A DNA stretch of 64,000 bases from an uncultured Candidatus Binatia bacterium (GCA_965215595.1 CBDCDW010000006.1:138129-202128), one strand, 5' to 3'. Positions 2,459-28,046 are shown, numbered from the stretch's first letter. Numbers and translations: made by a program. The notes: generated by a model from the sequence alone, not told the origin.

Positions 2459-3478
2459 TCATTTGGGCCGCTTGAGCATTGCGCGAATCTGCTTGAGGAC
2501 TTCAGGAGAGGCCTGAGTCAGCTTCCTGATGGTCTTCTCCACCTGCTCACCGTCATTCGGGACCACCGATAGGCCCGTTCTCTTGGCATCCGCGAGGAAC
2601 TTCGGGTCCTTCAATGTTTGCGCAAAGCCGCGCCGCAGAATTTTGACACGCTCCTGGGGTACCCCCGGTGGCGCCGTCCAGGCCCTGGGTGTTCTAAAGG
2701 GAACCACTGCCACTTCAACCAACTTCCTGGTGTTATCGTCTTTGATCAATTCCCAAATCGTGGGGACCTTAGGCAGCGCTTTATGCCGCTTATCTGAAAT
2801 GATACCTAAAATATGAAAGCCCTGGTCCAACCATTCTCGCCGCCGGGCCAAAACCGTTGAATAGGTCGAAGACCTTCCATCCACTTCCTTCCGTTCCACC
2901 GCCAGGTCGATTTCCGGGGGCGAGTAACCGAAAACATAATCGAATTTGACGCCTAGGGATTTTTCAAAGATACGGGCTTGCATGAAGATGGCATGCCTCG
3001 AGGACGGTACGCCCAGCTTGGGTGGCCGGTTGGCCTTGCGAATTGCTTCTACGCTTGAATACGGCGAATCCACATGAAAGATCAGTATTGAGTTAGGATC
3101 GGCAAAGGTCCCCAGCCAGATAAAATCTTCCACCTTATACTTGACCCCCCGCGTTCCGAGTATCTTGTGGAACGCCACCAGAGTACCATTCAACCCAATG
3201 GTCAAGCCGTCAGGTTTTGCCACGTTATAGAGATAGTTTGCTAAATTGATTCCCCCAGCACCCGGTATCGGCTGAACGATGATGGCGGGATTTCCTGGAA
3301 TATGACGACTGAGGTGACGTCCCACCGTTCGCGCTTCAATGTCAGTTAACGCACCTGGGGGCGATGGAGTCAAAACACGTAACGCCTTACCGCTATAGAA
3401 CGACTGTGCCAGACCCGTGATGGGGATAAGCCAAATGCACACAGAAAGGCAAAGCCACCGGAATATCCTTCCAAACAT
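2459..3478 (-). CDS. tctC: Tripartite tricarboxylate transporter substrate-binding protein, TctC/Bug family
   Basis: 339 aa, signal peptide, Bug-family-like periplasmic binding protein. Lies between tctB-like and tctA genes. Confidence 0.7.
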   Translation of the reverse strand: MFGRIFRWLCLSVCIWLIPITGLAQSFYSGKALRVLTPSPPGALTDIEARTVGRHLSRHIPGNPAIIVQPIPGAGGINLANYLYNVAKPDGLTIGLNGTLVAFHKILGTRGVKYKVEDFIWLGTFADPNSILIFHVDSPYSSVEAIRKANRPPKLGVPSSRHAIFMQARIFEKSLGVKFDYVFGYSPPEIDLAVERKEVDGRSSTYSTVLARRREWLDQGFHILGIISDKRHKALPKVPTIWELIKDDNTRKLVEVAVVPFRTPRAWTAPPGVPQERVKILRRGFAQTLKDPKFLADAKRTGLSVVPNDGEQVEKTIRKLTQASPEVLKQIRAMLKRPK

Positions 3479-3578
3479 TTGTCACCCCCTGAATGGTATT
3501 GCTAAACTTTTTTGTTAAAAGCGGCAGTTAAACTCAGTCGCACCCCGGATGTGGATCCCAAGACCTACCACAGCGGTC

Positions 3579-4076
3579 CTAACCATACAACCATTCTAAC
3601 CACTGAAACGCCATTCCTTGAGGAAACGGTAGATGGAGGAAATGATCAAAGATTCCCCACAAAAAGGCCCAGGCAACTGTGGTGAGGCCCAGGGAAACAA
3701 ACCAACCTTCACGGGATTGAATTTTCAGATAGCAGAATACCACCACCGGTACCGCCACCTGAAAACCCACAAGCCAGATGAGACCCAATAACCCGTAAAT
3801 CCAACAGAAAATATTCAAGGTCCTGCTGCGCAACAGCTCAGGTGACAGGGTGGCAGAAGAAGGGGTGGAGTCATCCTCAGGGTCAGAAACCCCCACTGTC
3901 TTGCCAACACCGCGAAGGTCGAGAGCAATCTGTACCAAGCCGAGGATAAGCATCGGAATTCCAATGACCCAGGGAAACATACGGGCCTCTATGGGCCAAT
4001 CTTTCGCCAAAATGATCACCACAGCGAAGAACATCGCTACAAAAGAACTCACCCATACTTGACGCTCAACCCGCAT
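3579..4076 (-). CDS. tctB: Small TctB-like membrane subunit of the tricarboxylate transporter
   Basis: 165-aa, 4-helix hydrophobic protein immediately upstream of tctC and tctA in the same orientation. Confidence 0.55.
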   Translation of the reverse strand: MRVERQVWVSSFVAMFFAVVIILAKDWPIEARMFPWVIGIPMLILGLVQIALDLRGVGKTVGVSDPEDDSTPSSATLSPELLRSRTLNIFCWIYGLLGLIWLVGFQVAVPVVVFCYLKIQSREGWFVSLGLTTVAWAFLWGIFDHFLHLPFPQGMAFQWLEWLYG

Positions 4077-4273
4077 GTCACATCCCCTTTTATCAGGCCC
4101 ACACCATAGCCCGGGACAACATCCACTGCAACAAATTTGAAAGAATTCAGCTTATAAAAGTACCCTTCGTATCTATTGCTAGAGAGGATTATTTGCATTA
4201 TGAGTTGTTGAATCCGATCCTCGACCCGAATATAATCCCCGCGTAGATTGACTGTGAATATGGAGGTAGGCCC

Positions 4274-5362
4274 ATGAGTACATCAAACCATTTGCCGGTC
4301 ATCGACGCAGACTCCCACGTCATCGAGACCGCACGGACTTGGGAGTATCTAGAGCCATCCGAGCAGAAGTATCGCCCACTCCTCTACTCCTCACCTGACA
4401 ATCCCACCCGACAGTACTGGATGATGGACGGCAAGATTTGCGGCCTACGCTTTCCCACCTTGAGCGAGCAGGAGCTTAAGACAATGTCGGAAAAGACAGG
4501 GAGGCACATGGAAACTCCGCAAGAAGCCCGCGAGCTCGACGACGTGAACCTTAGACTTAAGCACCTGGACAAGCTCGGGATCGATATTCAGATTCTGCAC
4601 AACACGTTTTGGATCGAACAGGTCTCTCCTCGACCGGAGGCTGAGGCCGCCCTCTGCCGGAGCTGGAACCGTTGGCTCGGGGATATTTGGCGCCAGGGTA
4701 ACGGAAGGTTACGCTGGTCATGTGTCGTACCCTCTATGCTGATGGACGAGGCAATCCAGCAGGTGAAGATGGCAAAGGAAAATGGCGCGGTGGCAGTGTG
4801 TTTGAGGCCTCTTGAGGGGAACCGCCACATTACGGACCCGTACTTTTATCCCCTTTATGAAGTGGCGAGCGATCTTGACATGGCGATGGCCGTGCATATC
4901 GCCAACGGCAACCCGGACTATTGCGATCTCTACCGCTATACTCCGGCAAGCACCATGATCATGTTTCGGATGCCCACAGTGGCTGCCTGCTTTGCCCTTT
5001 TGATGAGCGAAGTTCCGCAGCTTTTTCGCAAATTGCGGTGGGGCTTTATTGAAACCTCAGCTCAATGGGTGCCGTGGATCTATCACGAGGCTGCAATTCG
5101 CTACAAAGGAGCGGGCAGAAAAATCCCTGACGATTTGTTTCACGAGTGCAATATCTTTGTTACCTGTCAAACCAACGACGACATCCCCTACATCCTCAAG
5201 TATTCCGGCGAGCACGCATTGGCCATAGGTACGGACTACGGACATACCGATACCTCCGCCAAGTTGGATACGATTACGGAATTTAAAAATTCTGAAGCAA
5301 TCAGCCAGGATGACCGAAATCGAATTCTAACTCACAACCCAAAAGCCCTGTATGCTCTCTGA
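4274..5362 (+). CDS. Amidohydrolase-2 family protein (ACMSD-like metal-dependent hydrolase)
   Basis: 362 aa. N-terminal IDADSHVIE metal-binding start and C-terminal GTDYGHTD motif typical of amidohydrolase_2. Confidence 0.65.
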   Translation: MSTSNHLPVIDADSHVIETARTWEYLEPSEQKYRPLLYSSPDNPTRQYWMMDGKICGLRFPTLSEQELKTMSEKTGRHMETPQEARELDDVNLRLKHLDKLGIDIQILHNTFWIEQVSPRPEAEAALCRSWNRWLGDIWRQGNGRLRWSCVVPSMLMDEAIQQVKMAKENGAVAVCLRPLEGNRHITDPYFYPLYEVASDLDMAMAVHIANGNPDYCDLYRYTPASTMIMFRMPTVAACFALLMSEVPQLFRKLRWGFIETSAQWVPWIYHEAAIRYKGAGRKIPDDLFHECNIFVTCQTNDDIPYILKYSGEHALAIGTDYGHTDTSAKLDTITEFKNSEAISQDDRNRILTHNPKALYAL

Positions 5363-5374
5363 AAGCAGGGTTGT

Positions 5375-5525
5375 CTAAAAGGTCGTCCGATCCAGGCTCC
5401 GGTATTGGATCGCCTCCGAAATATGTGCGGACTGAATGTTCCCTGACCCTTCCAGGTCCGCGATGGTTCGACTCACTTTAAGAATCCGGTTGTACACCCG
5501 GGCGCTCAGGGCAAACTTAGCGATG
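5375..5525 (-). pseudogene. Displaced duplicate of the comM 3' end. It encodes ~50 C-terminal ComM residues in frame, ending in a stop.
   Basis: Reverse complement translates to ...[50 protein letters not shown]. The intact comM C-terminus at 7948-8100 reads ...[50 protein letters not shown]. Estimated by eye at ~85% nucleotide identity, with mostly synonymous or conservative differences. Confidence 0.75.
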
Positions 5526-5947
5526 CAGAGCATATAGAGTGCCTAAAGGCACAAGATTTTTAGCTGGGAGAGCCAAATTTGCTCAAATTCTACCTCTACA
5601 TGCCTTTAAAGGCCGATTCCAAAGACCCGGGTCAGCCACCCTTGCCTTCCGCCCGGTCCCTGCTGGTAGCTAAAAAGCCCGCGTCAGGCGTCATGGGATC
5701 GATCCAATATAACCTGTCGAAATGAGAAGCGAGAACGAGTGCTCTGTTAAGGGAGTCCGAATAGCTGCACTACTACATTTTGGGATCTAGAACCATGTGG
5801 ATGTGTAGCCCAGTTTAACCAGCGTCCAACTATGTACAAAATTGGAAAAAAGAATCCCCGGATCTGGACGATTCCAGTGCCTGCAATGATTATTTTGGAT
5901 GTTCTCGAACTGAGGCTGGCATAGATCCTGCTCTATTTAAAAGGATT

Positions 5948-6877
5948 ATGGGGACAGAGGATTCGACAGATAAGACCGATATTATGTCCTCAATCTCCTC
6001 CTGGAAAGATAAGCGATCGGGGCGGAATACCAGCAGCGCTAACGGCGAGGAAGGAAACCACGATACAAAGCGCGTTTCCACTGGAATTCCTGACCTTGAC
6101 CTTCTCATTGAAGGAGGCTTTCCAATTGGAAAGTCTTATCTCATTACAGGGGAACAAGGCTCAGGGAAAACCGTTTTTTGTATTCAGTTTATCCTGTCCA
6201 GTCTCCTAGCGGGGGAGAGGGTTGTTTACGTCACCGTCAATGAAAAACCGGCCGAAATCGTCGCAGAGGCGAACTCCCTTGGTTGGAGCCTGCTAGAGTT
6301 TGTCGAAGAGAAGAAACTCCTGATCTTAGATGCCTCTCCCCTACTATCCACTGGCACAAGCCGAACATCCAAGGGTGAAGGGCCGGATGTAGCAAAGACC
6401 GTTGGCGATCTCGCCAACTACGTCAAGAGAATGGAGGCCTCTCGTGTTGTCATCGATCCCGTTGGTCCCCTGATTGGCTCTGCCGATTCTACGTCTACAG
6501 CGCAGGATCACACCCGTACTCTGGTCCACGCCCTACAGGATAATATGGAAACAACCAATCTAATTACCTCCAACTCCGTAAGTGGCAACAGCATATGCGC
6601 GGCTGACGGGCAGGGGATCCCGGTTAATGGTGTTGTGGCTCTCGGATTTAGCCGAAAGCAAAACGGTTTGATCCGCACCCTCTTGGTGAGCAAAATGCGG
6701 GGGACAGCCATTGATCTCATTGAATACCCCTATGACATTGTCAAGGGAAAGGGAATTGTACTCAATCCAATCATTCCCAAGGCGCCGACAACACCCGACG
6801 CTCCCACTATGTCCGCAACACCGGCCACCGAGACATCAGAAGGCGGCTTGGACATTTTTAAGGAATGGGAACCGTAG
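5948..6877 (+). CDS. Single-domain KaiC/RadA/RecA-superfamily ATPase (KaiC-like, COG0467 type)
   Basis: 309 aa. GIPDLDLLIEGGFPIGKSYLITGEQGSGKTVFCIQF (KaiC-type Walker A region), VVYVTVNEKPAEIVAEANSLGW, LLILDAS (Walker B). Confidence 0.6.
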   Translation: MGTEDSTDKTDIMSSISSWKDKRSGRNTSSANGEEGNHDTKRVSTGIPDLDLLIEGGFPIGKSYLITGEQGSGKTVFCIQFILSSLLAGERVVYVTVNEKPAEIVAEANSLGWSLLEFVEEKKLLILDASPLLSTGTSRTSKGEGPDVAKTVGDLANYVKRMEASRVVIDPVGPLIGSADSTSTAQDHTRTLVHALQDNMETTNLITSNSVSGNSICAADGQGIPVNGVVALGFSRKQNGLIRTLLVSKMRGTAIDLIEYPYDIVKGKGIVLNPIIPKAPTTPDAPTMSATPATETSEGGLDIFKEWEP

Positions 6878-7129
6878 TAAAAATAGAACTCTACAGACGC
6901 AAACCTGCGGTTTTAACCTTTACAGGTTATTGCCTGACCGACTTCATGAATCTCTCACGCGTGAAGCTTAAGCTTTGATCATCTCCAACCGCCAACTCCT
7001 AAAGAAGCAACTGCCGGACTCGATACACATACCTCAAGATCACAATTATCAACGGTAGAGATGCTCACACGCGGAACCCGAAAAGATAGTACTCGGTAGA
7101 GTAGAGGACAGGCTTAGCTTGCTTTAGGC

Positions 7130-7830
7130 CGCACCTTGGCTGTATCCGCCGTTTCCAGCTTCGTGCCCGTTTAGGCACTTCCGTAACAAGCGTTCCTGTC
7201 CCCCCTCATCAAACCGTACTTGCAGTTTTCCCGCATACGGCTTTCCGATCATCTTCATCTCAAGGCATGCGAGGCCGCCTATTGAGCTCCCTCTTGGCCT
7301 TGAGATACAGTCTCCGCTAGAGGTCTCGAATCTTGTTAGGTGTTTGTAGCCTCACGGCAATCACCTCTCCTTCCCTCTTTAAGAGACACAATGAAAGTAG
7401 GGCGCCTTCCCTCAGCCGGCATTACCCAGCCTCCTCGGTAATACTCGCCCCTCCGACTTCTCGCCCGCCTGACCCTGACTTCGGTTTCCCTTATACCGAG
7501 CCATTGCGGCTATCACCCGCGACAAACGAGATCTCCCGCGTTACCCATCACAACTTCCCCCACATGCCGTCCCGACGACCCCGGAGAGCCCATCTGCTTC
7601 TGTCTCGGTTATTTCCACAGATGGCACCGGCCTTCCCCATCTGACCACAGGGTCGGCACTCTCAATCAGCAAGTTACGAGGCTCTATGGGTTCCCTAGTA
7701 GTACGGCCTGCGAGTTTGCGATCCTCTCCTTTTGGAAAGTTTTCTCGATCCACTTAGCCCTGAGAGTCACCCCTCAAAACCAGATCTTCGCTAGCGGGGT
7801 GAACCGTTAATTCCCCGCACCGGACTTTAA
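7130..7830 (-). mobile_element. ORF-less group II intron-like RNA with a canonical domain V. Boundaries are approximate.
   Basis: Minus-strand reading of 7246-7212 gives AAGCCGUAUGCGGGAAAACUGCAAGUACGGUUU. It has the AGC catalytic triad, lower stem AGCCGUAU/AUACGGUU, an AA two-nucleotide bulge, and a GAAA-type loop. A GUGCG 5'-end candidate lies at 7820-7816 just after a small hairpin. No ORF of 80 aa or more with RT motifs lies in the ~0.7-kb span. Confidence 0.5.
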
Positions 7831-7947
7831 CCGGCAAGTTGCACTGCTTCCGCGGCATACGATCAGCCTTGCCTACTTGCTATTTACGAAGGGGTCGATA
7901 ATGACGGTATCAGGCAGGTAAATTGACTTTAGACTTAAATTGACGGG

Positions 7948-9516
7948 CTAAAATGTTCTTCGGTCCAGGCTCCGGTATTGGATCGCCTCCGAAATATGTG
8001 CGGATTGAATGTCCCCGGAGCCTTCCAGGTCAGCTATCGTTCGACTCACTTTAAGAATCCGGTTGTAAGCCCGGGCGCTCAGGCCAAACTTGGTAATGGC
8101 CGTTTCCAATAGCTTCTGCCCTTCCCCACTCACTTCACAGAACCTCTTGAGCTCCTTTGCCCCCATCTGGGCGTTGGAATGGATCTTACCCTGCTGAAAC
8201 CGCTGGGTCTGCAGGCAACGCGCAGCGTTCACCCTTTCACGAATATCGTTTGACTGCTCGCCCGGGTCCCGTGAGGCCAGGTCTTGATACTGAACGGCAG
8301 GAACCTCCACCTGAATATCGATACGGTCCAAAAGCGGACCCGAAATCTTTGAGCGGTAACGCTGGATCTGAACCGGCGTGCAGTTGCACTCTTTCTGGGG
8401 ATCGGTAAAAAATCCGCAGGGGCACGGATTCATAGCAGCAACCAGCATGAAGCCGGCCGGATAGTTCATGGACCCTACGGCGCGGGACACGGTAATGCTA
8501 CCGTCCTCCAGGGGTTGTCGCATCACCTCGATCACGTTACGCCGAAATTCCGGCAGCTCGTCGAGGAAGAGAACGCCATTGTGCGCCAAGGATACTTCCC
8601 CGGGTTTGGGGACTGTTCCTCCACCCACGAGTCCAGCATCGGAGATGGTGTGATGGGGGGAACGGAATGGCCGTGTGGCCAATAGCGGTCTCCCATTGAG
8701 AAGGCCCATGACACTGTGGATTTTCGTGGTCTCCAGGGCCTCCGGTAGGGACATATCTGACAGCACCGTGGGCAGTCTCTTGGCCAGCATTGTCTTGCCC
8801 GAACCTGGAGGACCTATCAGCAGCACATTGTGAGCCCCAGCCGCTGCCACCTCCAGGGCCCGTTTCACATGCTGCTGTCCTTTCACATCACTGAAATCTG
8901 TGTCGTAAACGGAATGTCTGCGGAAGAGTTCTTCCATATCCACTCGAGTGGGTTGGAGAGTGGGTTCACCATTAAGGTACTCAATCACCTGAGGCAGGTT
9001 CTGGGCACCAAGTACCTCCACCCCAGACACCACTCCAGCTTCAGGCGCATTGGTGACAGGCAGGATAATACCCCGGAGGCCTTCCGCCTTTGCAGCCACG
9101 GCCACAGGCAAGGCCCCGCGAACGGATTTGACCTCACCGTCGAGGGAGAGCTCGCCTAACATGAGGTAATCCCGCAGCCGGTCGTTTTTCACCAGACCTT
9201 CAGCCGCCAGGATACCCACCGCCATGGGGAGGTCATAACCAGAGCCCTCCTTTTTGACGTCGGCCGGGGCTAAATTAATGGTGATCTTCTTCGCGGGAAA
9301 AGAATAACCGCAGTTTTTTAATGCCGCGCGGATACGATCTTTACTTTCTCGAACCGCTCCCTCCGCCAAGCCCACTGTGGCCAACTGCGGTAGGCCTGAA
9401 GCGATATCCACTTCCACCTCCACCCGCAGAGCATCTATGCCATAGAGGGAAGCACTATTGATCTTTGCAAGCATCTCGGAGCCAATCTGCCATTTTGGTA
9501 ACCGGAGGGGGATCAT
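7948..9516 (-). CDS. comM: YifB/ComM family Mg-chelatase-like AAA+ ATPase
   Basis: 522 aa. N-terminal Lon-protease-like domain, Walker A LLIGPPGSGKTM, FLDELPEF, and an MCM/Mg-chelatase-like C-terminus. Confidence 0.9.
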   Translation of the reverse strand: MIPLRLPKWQIGSEMLAKINSASLYGIDALRVEVEVDIASGLPQLATVGLAEGAVRESKDRIRAALKNCGYSFPAKKITINLAPADVKKEGSGYDLPMAVGILAAEGLVKNDRLRDYLMLGELSLDGEVKSVRGALPVAVAAKAEGLRGIILPVTNAPEAGVVSGVEVLGAQNLPQVIEYLNGEPTLQPTRVDMEELFRRHSVYDTDFSDVKGQQHVKRALEVAAAGAHNVLLIGPPGSGKTMLAKRLPTVLSDMSLPEALETTKIHSVMGLLNGRPLLATRPFRSPHHTISDAGLVGGGTVPKPGEVSLAHNGVLFLDELPEFRRNVIEVMRQPLEDGSITVSRAVGSMNYPAGFMLVAAMNPCPCGFFTDPQKECNCTPVQIQRYRSKISGPLLDRIDIQVEVPAVQYQDLASRDPGEQSNDIRERVNAARCLQTQRFQQGKIHSNAQMGAKELKRFCEVSGEGQKLLETAITKFGLSARAYNRILKVSRTIADLEGSGDIQSAHISEAIQYRSLDRRTF

Positions 9517-10067
9517 ACTGAAAAACCCAGCCGGGGGGAAGAAGAATTATGGGTCTCGTCTCATGTCCCAAAAATACTAACCAAACGAGGACGAAGGGCA
9601 AAGCGCTAAGCGCAGAGCGCAAAGCGTTAAAAGCATAGCGCCAAGAGAAATTAACCGCCGATTAACGGAGATGGACACAGACGGGGGAACAGCAAAGCGC
9701 CTCTGAGTAGTACTGAGTAGCGAGTGCTGAGGACTGAGAAGGGAGGGATGAGAATCGAGTATCGAGGATTGAAGATCGATGATCAAAAAAGGGTTGAAGG
9801 AGAGATCCAGACGCTATGCGCCATGCGCTTTGCTGTGCCCTGGTCGACGCAAATCTACGGTTAAAAAATTATTTGCACCATCGCCTTGGCGCAAAAATCT
9901 TTTTTGGATTCGTTTTGGCGACGACTGATATGGGAGCATAGAACCCCACAGTCGTCTTGCCAAGAGTTGGAAATCTTGGTAAGAGTATATATGGATGTCT
10001 TGAACAAGATTACCAGAAAAACCCAGGCCTTTGTCTGGGTTTTTTTATCGTTGCTCGGAGGTAAGCC

Positions 10068-27969: not shown

Positions 27970-28046
27970 CGGGGCGTAGCGCAGCCTGGTAGCGCACACG
28001 CTTGGGGTGCGTGAGGTCACCGGTTCAAATCCGGTCGCCCCGACCA
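27970..28046 (+). tRNA. tRNA-Pro (anticodon GGG)
   Basis: Acceptor cggggcg/cgccccg, D-arm gcgc-agcctggta-gcgc, anticodon stem cacgc/gcgtg with loop ttGGGgt, T-arm accgg-ttcaaat-ccggt, discriminator A, encoded CCA. Confidence 0.88.

Follow-up and report, generated by a model that had tools for sequence, protein, structure and literature searches.

A duplicated comM 3′ end beside a KaiC-family ATPase gene in Candidatus Binatia, a candidate integrase-less remnant of site-specific integration

Results

In a 64,000-nucleotide (nt) stretch of DNA from an uncultured Candidatus Binatia bacterium (GCA_965215595.1 CBDCDW010000006.1:138129-202128; hereafter the window), the 3′ end of comM, a gene of the YifB family, is present twice: once as the end of the intact gene and once as a truncated copy that lies beside the neighbouring amidohydrolase gene. 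The DNA between the two copies, the island, carries one gene for a KaiC-family ATPase, and a group II intron has been added to it separately. The island is best interpreted, at a probability of about 0.55, as a remnant of site-specific integration into the comM 3′ end that resembles a cis-mobilizable element (CIME) and has no integrase, its recombinase having been lost or acting in trans. The evidence comes from comparison of the window with other sequences, which are designated below by our locus labels (L001 and so on).

A direct repeat of the comM 3′ end flanks a KaiC-family ATPase gene

A repeat search of the window reported a single direct-repeat family, formed by 151 nt at 5375-5525 (copy A) and at 7948-8098 (copy B), with 88% identity, a start-to-start distance of 2573 nt and 2422 nt separating the two copies. 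The match is far above chance (blastn of copy A against copy B: 89.6% over 144 nt, E = 3.5e-47). The initial annotation, made from the sequence by eye, had put the identity at about 85% and had proposed a BLASTN of 5375-5530 against 7948-8110; the duplicate is real and the estimate was slightly low.

On the minus strand, both copies read as the final 50 codons of comM plus the stop codon. Copy B (7948..8098, minus strand), as defined by the repeat search and the codon alignment, is the end of the functional gene: comM (7948..9516, minus strand) is full length and intact and encodes a YifB-family Mg-chelatase-like AAA ATPase of 522 amino acids (aa), with Pfam matches to ChlI, Mg_chelatase and Mg_chelatase_C and a score of 658.8 bits on the YifB family model TIGR00368 (cut-off 362.4). 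Copy A (5375..5525, minus strand), defined by the same means and by Pfam, is a displaced and non-functional comM 3′ end that sits inside a chance open reading frame (ORF) of 52 aa (5375-5533, minus strand) and adjoins the convergent amidohydrolase gene, with 12 nt to the stop codon of the latter. Translation of 5375-5525 and the Pfam match of the ORF (Mg_chelatase_C, positions 53-94 of 94; E = 9e-17) agree with the initial annotation of this segment as the last ~50 ComM residues with a stop. Because comM homology ends at 5525 and the first three codons of the ORF are unrelated sequence, copy A is not a portion of a longer gene, a possibility that had been raised at the outset. Thus the layout is that of 3′-end replacement, as originally suggested, with an intact gene bearing one copy and a truncated far copy beside the native neighbour.

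Codon alignment of the two copies shows differences at 18 of 150 positions, 13 of which are third codon positions (binomial P = 8.5e-4). These amount to 10 synonymous and five non-synonymous codon differences (A/T, A/G, V/A, N/D and T/R), of which the by-eye inspection had correctly listed three types (A->V, D->N and R->T) but not all five.

Without the intron, the island DNA between the repeats measures 1657 nt, and its GC content is 45-52% compared with 53-56% in the flanks. Its far edge is marked by the amidohydrolase gene (4274..5362, plus strand; PF04909), the native neighbour of comM that also adjoins comM in L001. Beside copy A lies an island-specific non-coding segment (5526..5712) that is kept only in islands of the comM type (L097 and, partly, L100). 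It is followed by what is here termed the KaiC module (5713..6887, plus strand; delimited by PF06745, blastn and boundary alignments), which comprises the KaiC-family ATPase gene with ~235 nt before it and ~10 nt after it. A further non-coding segment (6878..7095) runs from the KaiC gene to the intron. Its homology with L097 reaches window position 7033 and that with L100 reaches 7079; the non-coding stretch nearest comM within the island is different in each species. Directly 3′ of the comM stop codon, a spacer of 87 nt (7861..7947) contains the 5′ exon side of the intron and, at 7928-7931, the TTTA targeted by an insertion sequence (IS) in L084 (see below). The KaiC-like ATPase gene and the intron-like RNA, both anticipated by the initial annotation, were verified by PF06745 and Rfam matches, respectively. 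Promoter and terminator scans of the region performed no better than on shuffled sequence, and a relaxed Rfam scan of 5300-8200 returned the intron only.

The KaiC-family gene (5948-6877, plus strand; 309 aa; PF06745, E = 1.4e-49) is the sole Pfam-matching ORF between the window repeats. Its single-domain product (169 bits on PF06745, cut-off 26.6) belongs only to the broader Pfam KaiC/ATPase family: it is not a circadian KaiC, a type with two tandem RecA-like domains, since it has one domain and scores below the equivalog cut-offs (122.9 bits against 408 on NF006799 and 95.8 against 546 on TIGR02655). Assignment to a known defence protein was also rejected, as just a marginal PADLOC match over the P-loop region was obtained. 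Relatives of the KaiC-family protein or of ComM were sought on viral contigs, and none were found there.

The island is absent from a close relative, fixed in its species and old

By its ComM relatives, the window belongs to Candidatus Binatia. In the closest sampled species (L001; OZ244621.1), which shares 90% nt identity with the window across the comM body, the gene order is guaB-comM-60 nt-amidohydrolase-tctC, and the comM-amidohydrolase interval harbours no KaiC gene, second comM fragment or intron. As L001 lacks the 2.4 kb in the same gene order, the two close relatives differ in this stretch by an insertion or a deletion; the uninterrupted comM-amidohydrolase adjacency that the initial annotation proposed to look for in relatives is therefore present. 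The L001 intergenic region is weakly similar to the spacer that follows copy B, a likeness that we do not consider significant.

Six contigs of the window's own species (L081-L086; 99.5-100% identical) all carry the copy A fragment, KaiC and comM, and no presence/absence polymorphism of the island was found among them, so the island is fixed in this species. Moreover, the fragment-KaiC-comM layout occurs in three further species, represented by L097 (ComM 91% aa identity), L100 and L090 (ComM 90%). The window and L097 have the same interior-fragment junction (CTATATGCTCTGCATC, with the junction at its end) and island interiors that are 80-82% identical; therefore, their islands derive from one event. 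The island is thus old, being present in at least four Binatia species and probably vertically inherited, and any suggestion of recent mobility in the initial annotation is unsupported.

The island content next to the fragment varies; for example, genes for an alpha/beta hydrolase and an acyltransferase are found between the comM fragment and KaiC in L090 (4004-5776). The DNA immediately 3′ of the functional comM stop codon is likewise different in the window, L097, L100 and L090. In L097, it is the fragment copy, not the gene copy, that is followed by the 87-nt spacer of the window and, at the same site, by the intron, and the contig ends there. This junction is a hybrid such as excision, tandem integration or unequal crossing-over would produce.

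The displaced fragment decays and is patched by gene conversion

Across the window, L097 and L100, fragment copies show 75-79% identity, and functional comM 3′ copies 87-93%; the fragment thus diverges about twice as fast as the functional copy. Lesions have accumulated in the counterparts of copy A: in-frame stops plus a mutated stop codon in L097, a 27-nt deletion in L100 and a frameshift in L090. Given this faster divergence together with the stops, deletion and frameshift, the fragment is a decaying piece of pseudogene and not a gene. That the 52-aa ORF at 5375-5533 is nevertheless a genuine small gene, or an element whose antisense or regulatory function has been kept by selection, might be argued from its intact frame, ATG start and Pfam match, from its being a called gene in three same-species assemblies and from the persistence of the fragment in four species. 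It is scarcely credible, given the lesions in the counterparts, a start codon in unrelated junction sequence and the lack of any promoter-like site in the region. Furthermore, with L001 as the reference, the five non-synonymous differences from copy B are all derived in copy A.

Such derived changes are expected if constraint on the fragment is relaxed while the gene remains under purifying selection. The initial annotation had instead read the coding-like pattern of copy A as a sign of protein-coding selection in another lineage. Within the four genomes, the two copies are 88, 88, 83 and 80% identical, and lineage-specific bases are common to both copies (four in the window, four in L100 and seven in L090). 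Conversion between such repeats was seen directly in a sister system, where the KaiC module stands at an unrelated gene, X (described below): of two sequences that are 99% identical overall, L094 and L098, the former contains a tract of ~85 nt in its truncated repeat that is identical to the full copy, and the identity between repeat copies is 93% in L094 versus 85.5% in L098. As the within-genome likeness at comM is above what a single old duplication allows, gene conversion appears to partly re-homogenise the fragment. With derived changes in copy A, a twofold decay, lesions in the counterparts and conversion, the coding-like pattern needs no selection in another lineage, and to reason from coding-constrained divergence to foreign origin is unsafe. 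Since conversion rewrites the copies, the repeat is also no record of a donor. Polarising the copy differences by L001 in order to find the native copy was abandoned, L001 being discontinuous with the window in the same segment.

A group II intron and an insertion sequence are later arrivals

The intron (7096..7860, minus strand) is an ORF-less group II intron of 765 nt (5′ GUAUG...CUAC 3′), with ends that conform to the GUNYG...AY pattern of such introns and Rfam matches to both D1-D4 (RF02005 at 7828-7569; 93.4 bits, gathering 49) and D5/D6 (RF00029, domains V/VI, at 7245-7096; 47.9 bits, gathering 40). Its ends were set by comparison with intron-less strains, and its insertion point is 87 nt downstream of the comM stop codon. 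No ORF of reverse-transcriptase size is present in the 765 nt (none exceeds 103 aa), and a helper reverse transcriptase must be encoded elsewhere. Among the same-species sequences, the intron is present in the window and L085 and absent from L081, L082, L083 and L086, in which exactly 765 nt (7096-7860) are missing and the empty site reads GTACTCG-G-ATCAGCC; L084 has no intron and carries an IS a few bases away. Because four same-species contigs lack exactly these 765 nt and yet have the island, the intron is a separate, recent and strain-polymorphic insertion, not island cargo, and the initial annotation's inclusion of it in the element does not hold. Nested late arrivals of this sort, whether an ORF-less group II intron or an IS, can pass wrongly for element cargo.

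The comM 3′ flank is hence a landing pad for several kinds of element. The L084 IS spans 1.6 kb (L084 7220-8851), encodes a DDE_Tnp_1/DUF772 transposase and has terminal inverted repeats (CGGGCTGTTGCCCAAA); its target duplication, TTTA, corresponds to window 7928-7931, 17-20 nt 3′ of the comM stop codon. A related intron in another species occupies the same site of the same 87-nt spacer (L097 1-40).

An apparent preferred recombination point near position −117 of comM

Between the window and L001, mismatches are concentrated in the comM 3′ segment (31 of 151 positions, against 140 of 1418 elsewhere in the gene; Fisher P = 2.7e-4). They become dense from a point between −121 and −109 relative to the stop codon, where identity drops from 90% to ~73%, and the last ~110 nt of copy B break orthology with L001. 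Judged from this pattern, the window or the L001 lineage has exchanged its comM tail here since the two split. The comM fragments of L028 and L004 begin at an identical base, the junction of TAC and AGCCGG, which is −117 in window numbering. The two window copies share, without a mismatch, a 29-nt block from −120 to −92; the window repeat itself reaches −151, and other comM fragments have other edges. Second comM 3′ fragments downstream of comM were found in L004, L014, L028, L074, L090, L097 and L100. The comM 3′ end is a site of recurrent recombination in this group, with an apparent preferred point ~117 nt before the stop codon.

The island of L028 (9411-16739) measures 7 kb, with a repeat that is 96.6% identical, and encodes a protein in which a Y1 (IS200-like) transposase domain is joined to a DnaA_C-like helix-turn-helix. 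A Y1/DnaA_C protein is also encoded just beyond the fragment in L004 (9444-11571), and a 36-aa remnant lies beside comM in L035 (6983-7090). As a candidate recombinase for the comM islands this protein was rejected, since it is not in the window island and is absent from most loci.

The KaiC module recurs at an unrelated gene

Close homologues of the KaiC-family protein (80-83% aa identity) also adjoin an unrelated 60-aa gene, X, in the order truncated X 3′ copy, KaiC and full convergent X, with a repeat of 138-141 nt (L094, L098 and L099). Only window 5713-6887, that is, the KaiC gene with ~235 nt upstream and ~10 nt downstream, is common to the comM and X contexts; by blastn this module is 85-87% identical to L094, L098, L099, L095 and L087 over 5713/5818-6887/6891. 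Likeness among KaiC genes is independent of context: L097, of the comM type, is 94% identical to L087, of the X type, and 87% to the window. The occurrence of a one-gene KaiC module in the same architecture at two unrelated genes is the sole unusual feature of the system.

At X, the endings of the gene reveal the polarity. The native X in L101 ends in ...FQKVEH plus stop, with a small membrane ORF after it; the truncated copy in L094 ends in ...FQKVGH plus stop and precedes a homologue of that same small ORF. The full X on the KaiC side ends in ...FRKVR plus stop, as does the KaiC-linked X of L094, L098, L095 and L087. Since the ending of the truncated copy and the ORF after it match native X and the KaiC-side X ends differently, the displaced fragment at X is native and the gene-fused end is the incoming one, following the logic of e14 at icd. 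By analogy, and by position, the same polarity would hold in the window, the fragment there being next to the native amidohydrolase gene.

Gene X belongs to an abundant family (588 database relatives, mostly on short contigs) and occurs in islands that also encode a Prim-Pol primase and a tyrosine integrase; L094 carries, immediately beyond its repeats, an integrase gene and an integrase fragment. The 3′ end of X is a hotspot, with the KaiC module and a duplicated X tail at L094 112-1667, L098 507-2050 and L099 149-2277. In L099, a pilin-like (N_methyl) ORF splits X. In L102 (973-1556) and L103, a glyoxalase gene stands directly after X, ahead of the stretch that directly follows the X fragment in L094.

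A local rearrangement is conceivable in which KaiC originally lay between the amidohydrolase gene and comM, KaiC and the comM 3′ end were duplicated in tandem and one KaiC was then deleted, which left the fragment with neither horizontal transfer nor a mobile element involved. It would agree with the higher likeness of the copies within genomes (80-88%) than of the fragments between species (62-79%), with an island GC content only slightly below that of the flanks and with the fixation of the island in its species. We regard it as improbable: the within-genome similarity is accounted for by the gene conversion demonstrated above, two precise steps would be needed, and again independently at X, 94%-identical KaiC modules occur in different contexts, the gene-fused end of X differs in type from native X ends, and the island is absent from L001, the nearest relative by comM body (90% nt).

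No recombinase gene is found in the islands

The survey for recombinases covered 80 comM loci with 8-kb flanks plus the window. No recombinase gene was found in the islands of L090, L097 and L100, and six-frame translations of the non-coding island parts, inspected by eye with no profile-library scan made, revealed no integrase-like remnant. In tblastn with two integrases over the 80 loci and the window, only a spurious 25-aa match over a tRNA gene was obtained. A phmmer search with four recombinases detected nothing, at a low sensitivity, as IntE missed other integrase queries at E <= 0.01. A regular expression for the catalytic box was dropped because it recognised just one of its three positive controls. 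For 101 non-conserved ORFs located 3′ of comM, a Pfam batch scan gave no useful information, since it listed only 25 of 151 families. A literature search on comM as an integrase target returned mostly noise.

The 25-aa match concerns the integrase of an island in L101 (14864-16144), the last 25 residues of which match the translated tRNA gene of the window at 27970-28043. This suggests that the L101 integrase gene overlaps an attachment (att) site derived from the same tRNA species.

Other features of the window

The comM-guaB intergenic region contains, within a gene-free stretch of 550 nt, imperfect inverted and direct repeats rich in GCAAAGCGC motifs (9598-9845; for example, 9598-9619 with 9812-9833, and 9680-9700 with 9825-9845), which may be a REP-like or regulatory structure. 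In addition, strain L083 shows 41 differences from the window, 32 of which are bunched in ~650 nt of the tctB region (window 3434-4080), a pattern suggestive of a tract imported from a diverged relative by homologous recombination.

Discussion

The order of events that we propose is as follows. A small foreign DNA, now the KaiC gene and its non-coding flanks, would have recombined with comM ~117 nt before the stop codon and brought a replacement 3′ end, so that comM was kept intact; the truncated comM 3′ copy would have remained at the far edge of the insert, beside the native amidohydrolase gene. As the agent we infer a site-specific recombinase that the island no longer encodes, the gene having been deleted or the enzyme having acted in trans. 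Afterwards, the island would have been inherited vertically across a group of Binatia species, the fragment would have decayed as a pseudogene while being repeatedly patched by conversion from the functional copy, and the DNA just 3′ of the comM stop codon would have stayed a landing pad, receiving the intron in some strains and the IS in another. Site-specific integration is favoured because of the recurrent −117 point, the variable DNA beside the gene, which resembles that found at att sites used more than once, the many comM fragments and the integrases around X. In its essentials this retains the initial annotation of the 2.4 kb as the remnant of an element without an integrase: the integration footprint and the lack of an integrase gene stand, the intron does not belong to the element, and a lost integrase is one of the ways in which the lack could have arisen.

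Several observations weigh against this interpretation. Between the repeats of eight contigs, at two target genes, there is no integrase, excisionase or other mobility gene, and no autonomous comM-targeting element with an integrase turned up in the 80 comM loci, by tests that are weak. The repeat stretches 34 nt upstream of the proposed crossover, far beyond what a recombinase core needs. One KaiC module with two different 3′-end arms requires two integrase losses or an enzyme in trans for each target. In L097, the fragment copy has the spacer that belongs to copy B in the window, so that an extra event is needed, such as a tandem array or a hybrid junction. Moreover, copy A is no closer than copy B to the 3′ end of L001 (76.5% versus 79.7%), and for this reason the assignment of the window fragment as native rests on position and analogy, with conversion called upon to account for the likeness of the two copies.

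The main rival, and a serious one, is insertion through integrase-free homologous recombination of the Campbell type, which we consider possible but rather unlikely. Here, a small circular or linear KaiC DNA with an arm of 140-150 nt, the 3′ end of the target gene, would have entered through one RecA-type crossover or through illegitimate recombination aided by homology, duplicating the arm, and would be lost or moved in the same way. No island at either target has a recombinase gene, and the KaiC module (5713-6887) is joined to two unrelated arms (151 nt of comM; 138-141 nt of X) in the same convergent geometry, with a KaiC tree that ignores context (L097 of the comM type being 94% identical to L087 of the X type). 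Recombination between the copies is active, as seen from the ~85-nt conversion tract between 99%-identical strains and from the shared lineage-specific bases, and the window/L001 breakpoint falls inside one of the two longest identical blocks, the likeliest place for a crossover. However, homology-driven crossovers should scatter, yet the fragments of L028 and L004 share one exact starting base, and this point coincides with the window/L001 breakpoint. Arms of 150 nt with 85-93% identity are also poor RecA substrates, the known precedents of 3′-end replacement are integrase-driven (e14), L094 has integrase sequences (a gene and a fragment) immediately beyond its repeats, and X occurs in integrase-bearing islands.

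A bolder form of the same idea is that the KaiC module and a captured arm of 140-150 nt make up a minimal, recombinase-free integrative cassette. It would be retargeted by arm swap (comM or X) and would replace the 3′ end of its target so that the host gene survives. Homologous recombination, which its own KaiC-like ATPase of the RecA superfamily might promote, would serve for both integration and excision. We consider this a long shot, more doubtful still than the local rearrangement. Should the presence of the KaiC module at two genes reflect a mechanism and not repeated decay, it would represent a new and very small type of integrative element.

Comparison with known systems

Under the site-specific interpretation, the comM island is a clean, textbook-style case of 3′-end-replacement integration in Candidatus Binatia, and a genomic-island scar of an ordinary type. 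To our knowledge, Candidatus Binatia is an uncultured phylum whose mobile elements are almost undescribed.

The closest structural parallel is the cryptic prophage e14 (and phage 21) at icd. There, as here, the element begins in the target gene and supplies a replacement 3′ end that keeps the gene intact, and a truncated native copy, the icdC pseudogene, lies at the far edge. When measured in Escherichia coli K-12, the e14/icd repeat spans 165 nt with 92.7% identity and has 11 of 12 differences at third codon positions, similar to the 151 nt, 88% and 13 of 18 of the window. The two differ in content: e14 is 15 kb long and holds intE and xisE together with phage genes, whereas the comM island is 1.66 kb without the intron and has one cargo gene and no recombinase or phage gene. 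In addition, unlike in e14, the fragment at comM is decaying and partly converted, and the island is fixed and common to several species.

The target gene itself is familiar from the AbaR resistance islands of the Tn7-like Tn6022 family, which target comM of Acinetobacter baumannii, comM/yifB being a hotspot of insertion by foreign DNA. These islands are transposons that carry TnsABC-like genes, duplicate 5 bp of their target and land inside comM, which is thereby inactivated. The island described here shares the target gene family with them but leaves comM intact, has a 151-nt duplication of the 3′ end and carries no transposition genes.

The same logic of integration underlies the integrative genetic elements mapped by Islander and TIGER (PMC7192596). 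Those elements are defined by an integrase gene, and the comM island has none.

For islands without integration and transfer genes that keep their flanking att repeats, the term CIME is in use (PMC6323972). Like the comM island, the CIMEs related to ICESt1 and ICESt3 at the fda 3′ end of Streptococcus thermophilus have direct repeats from the 3′ end of the target and no integration or transfer genes. CIMEs derive from integrative and conjugative elements or integrative and mobilizable elements; for the comM island, the weak tests on the 80 loci detected no related autonomous element of either kind at the comM site. The ICESt1 repeats are 27 nt long, and those of the comM island, its candidate att sites, are ~150 nt long and 12% diverged, in a host from an uncultured Binatia lineage. 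Pavlovic et al., in 2004, are said to have described CIME evolution by deletion and tandem accretion. By analogy, deletion and tandem accretion would explain both the variable DNA beside comM and the hybrid junction of L097, which is compatible with, although no proof of, cis mobilisation by accretion.

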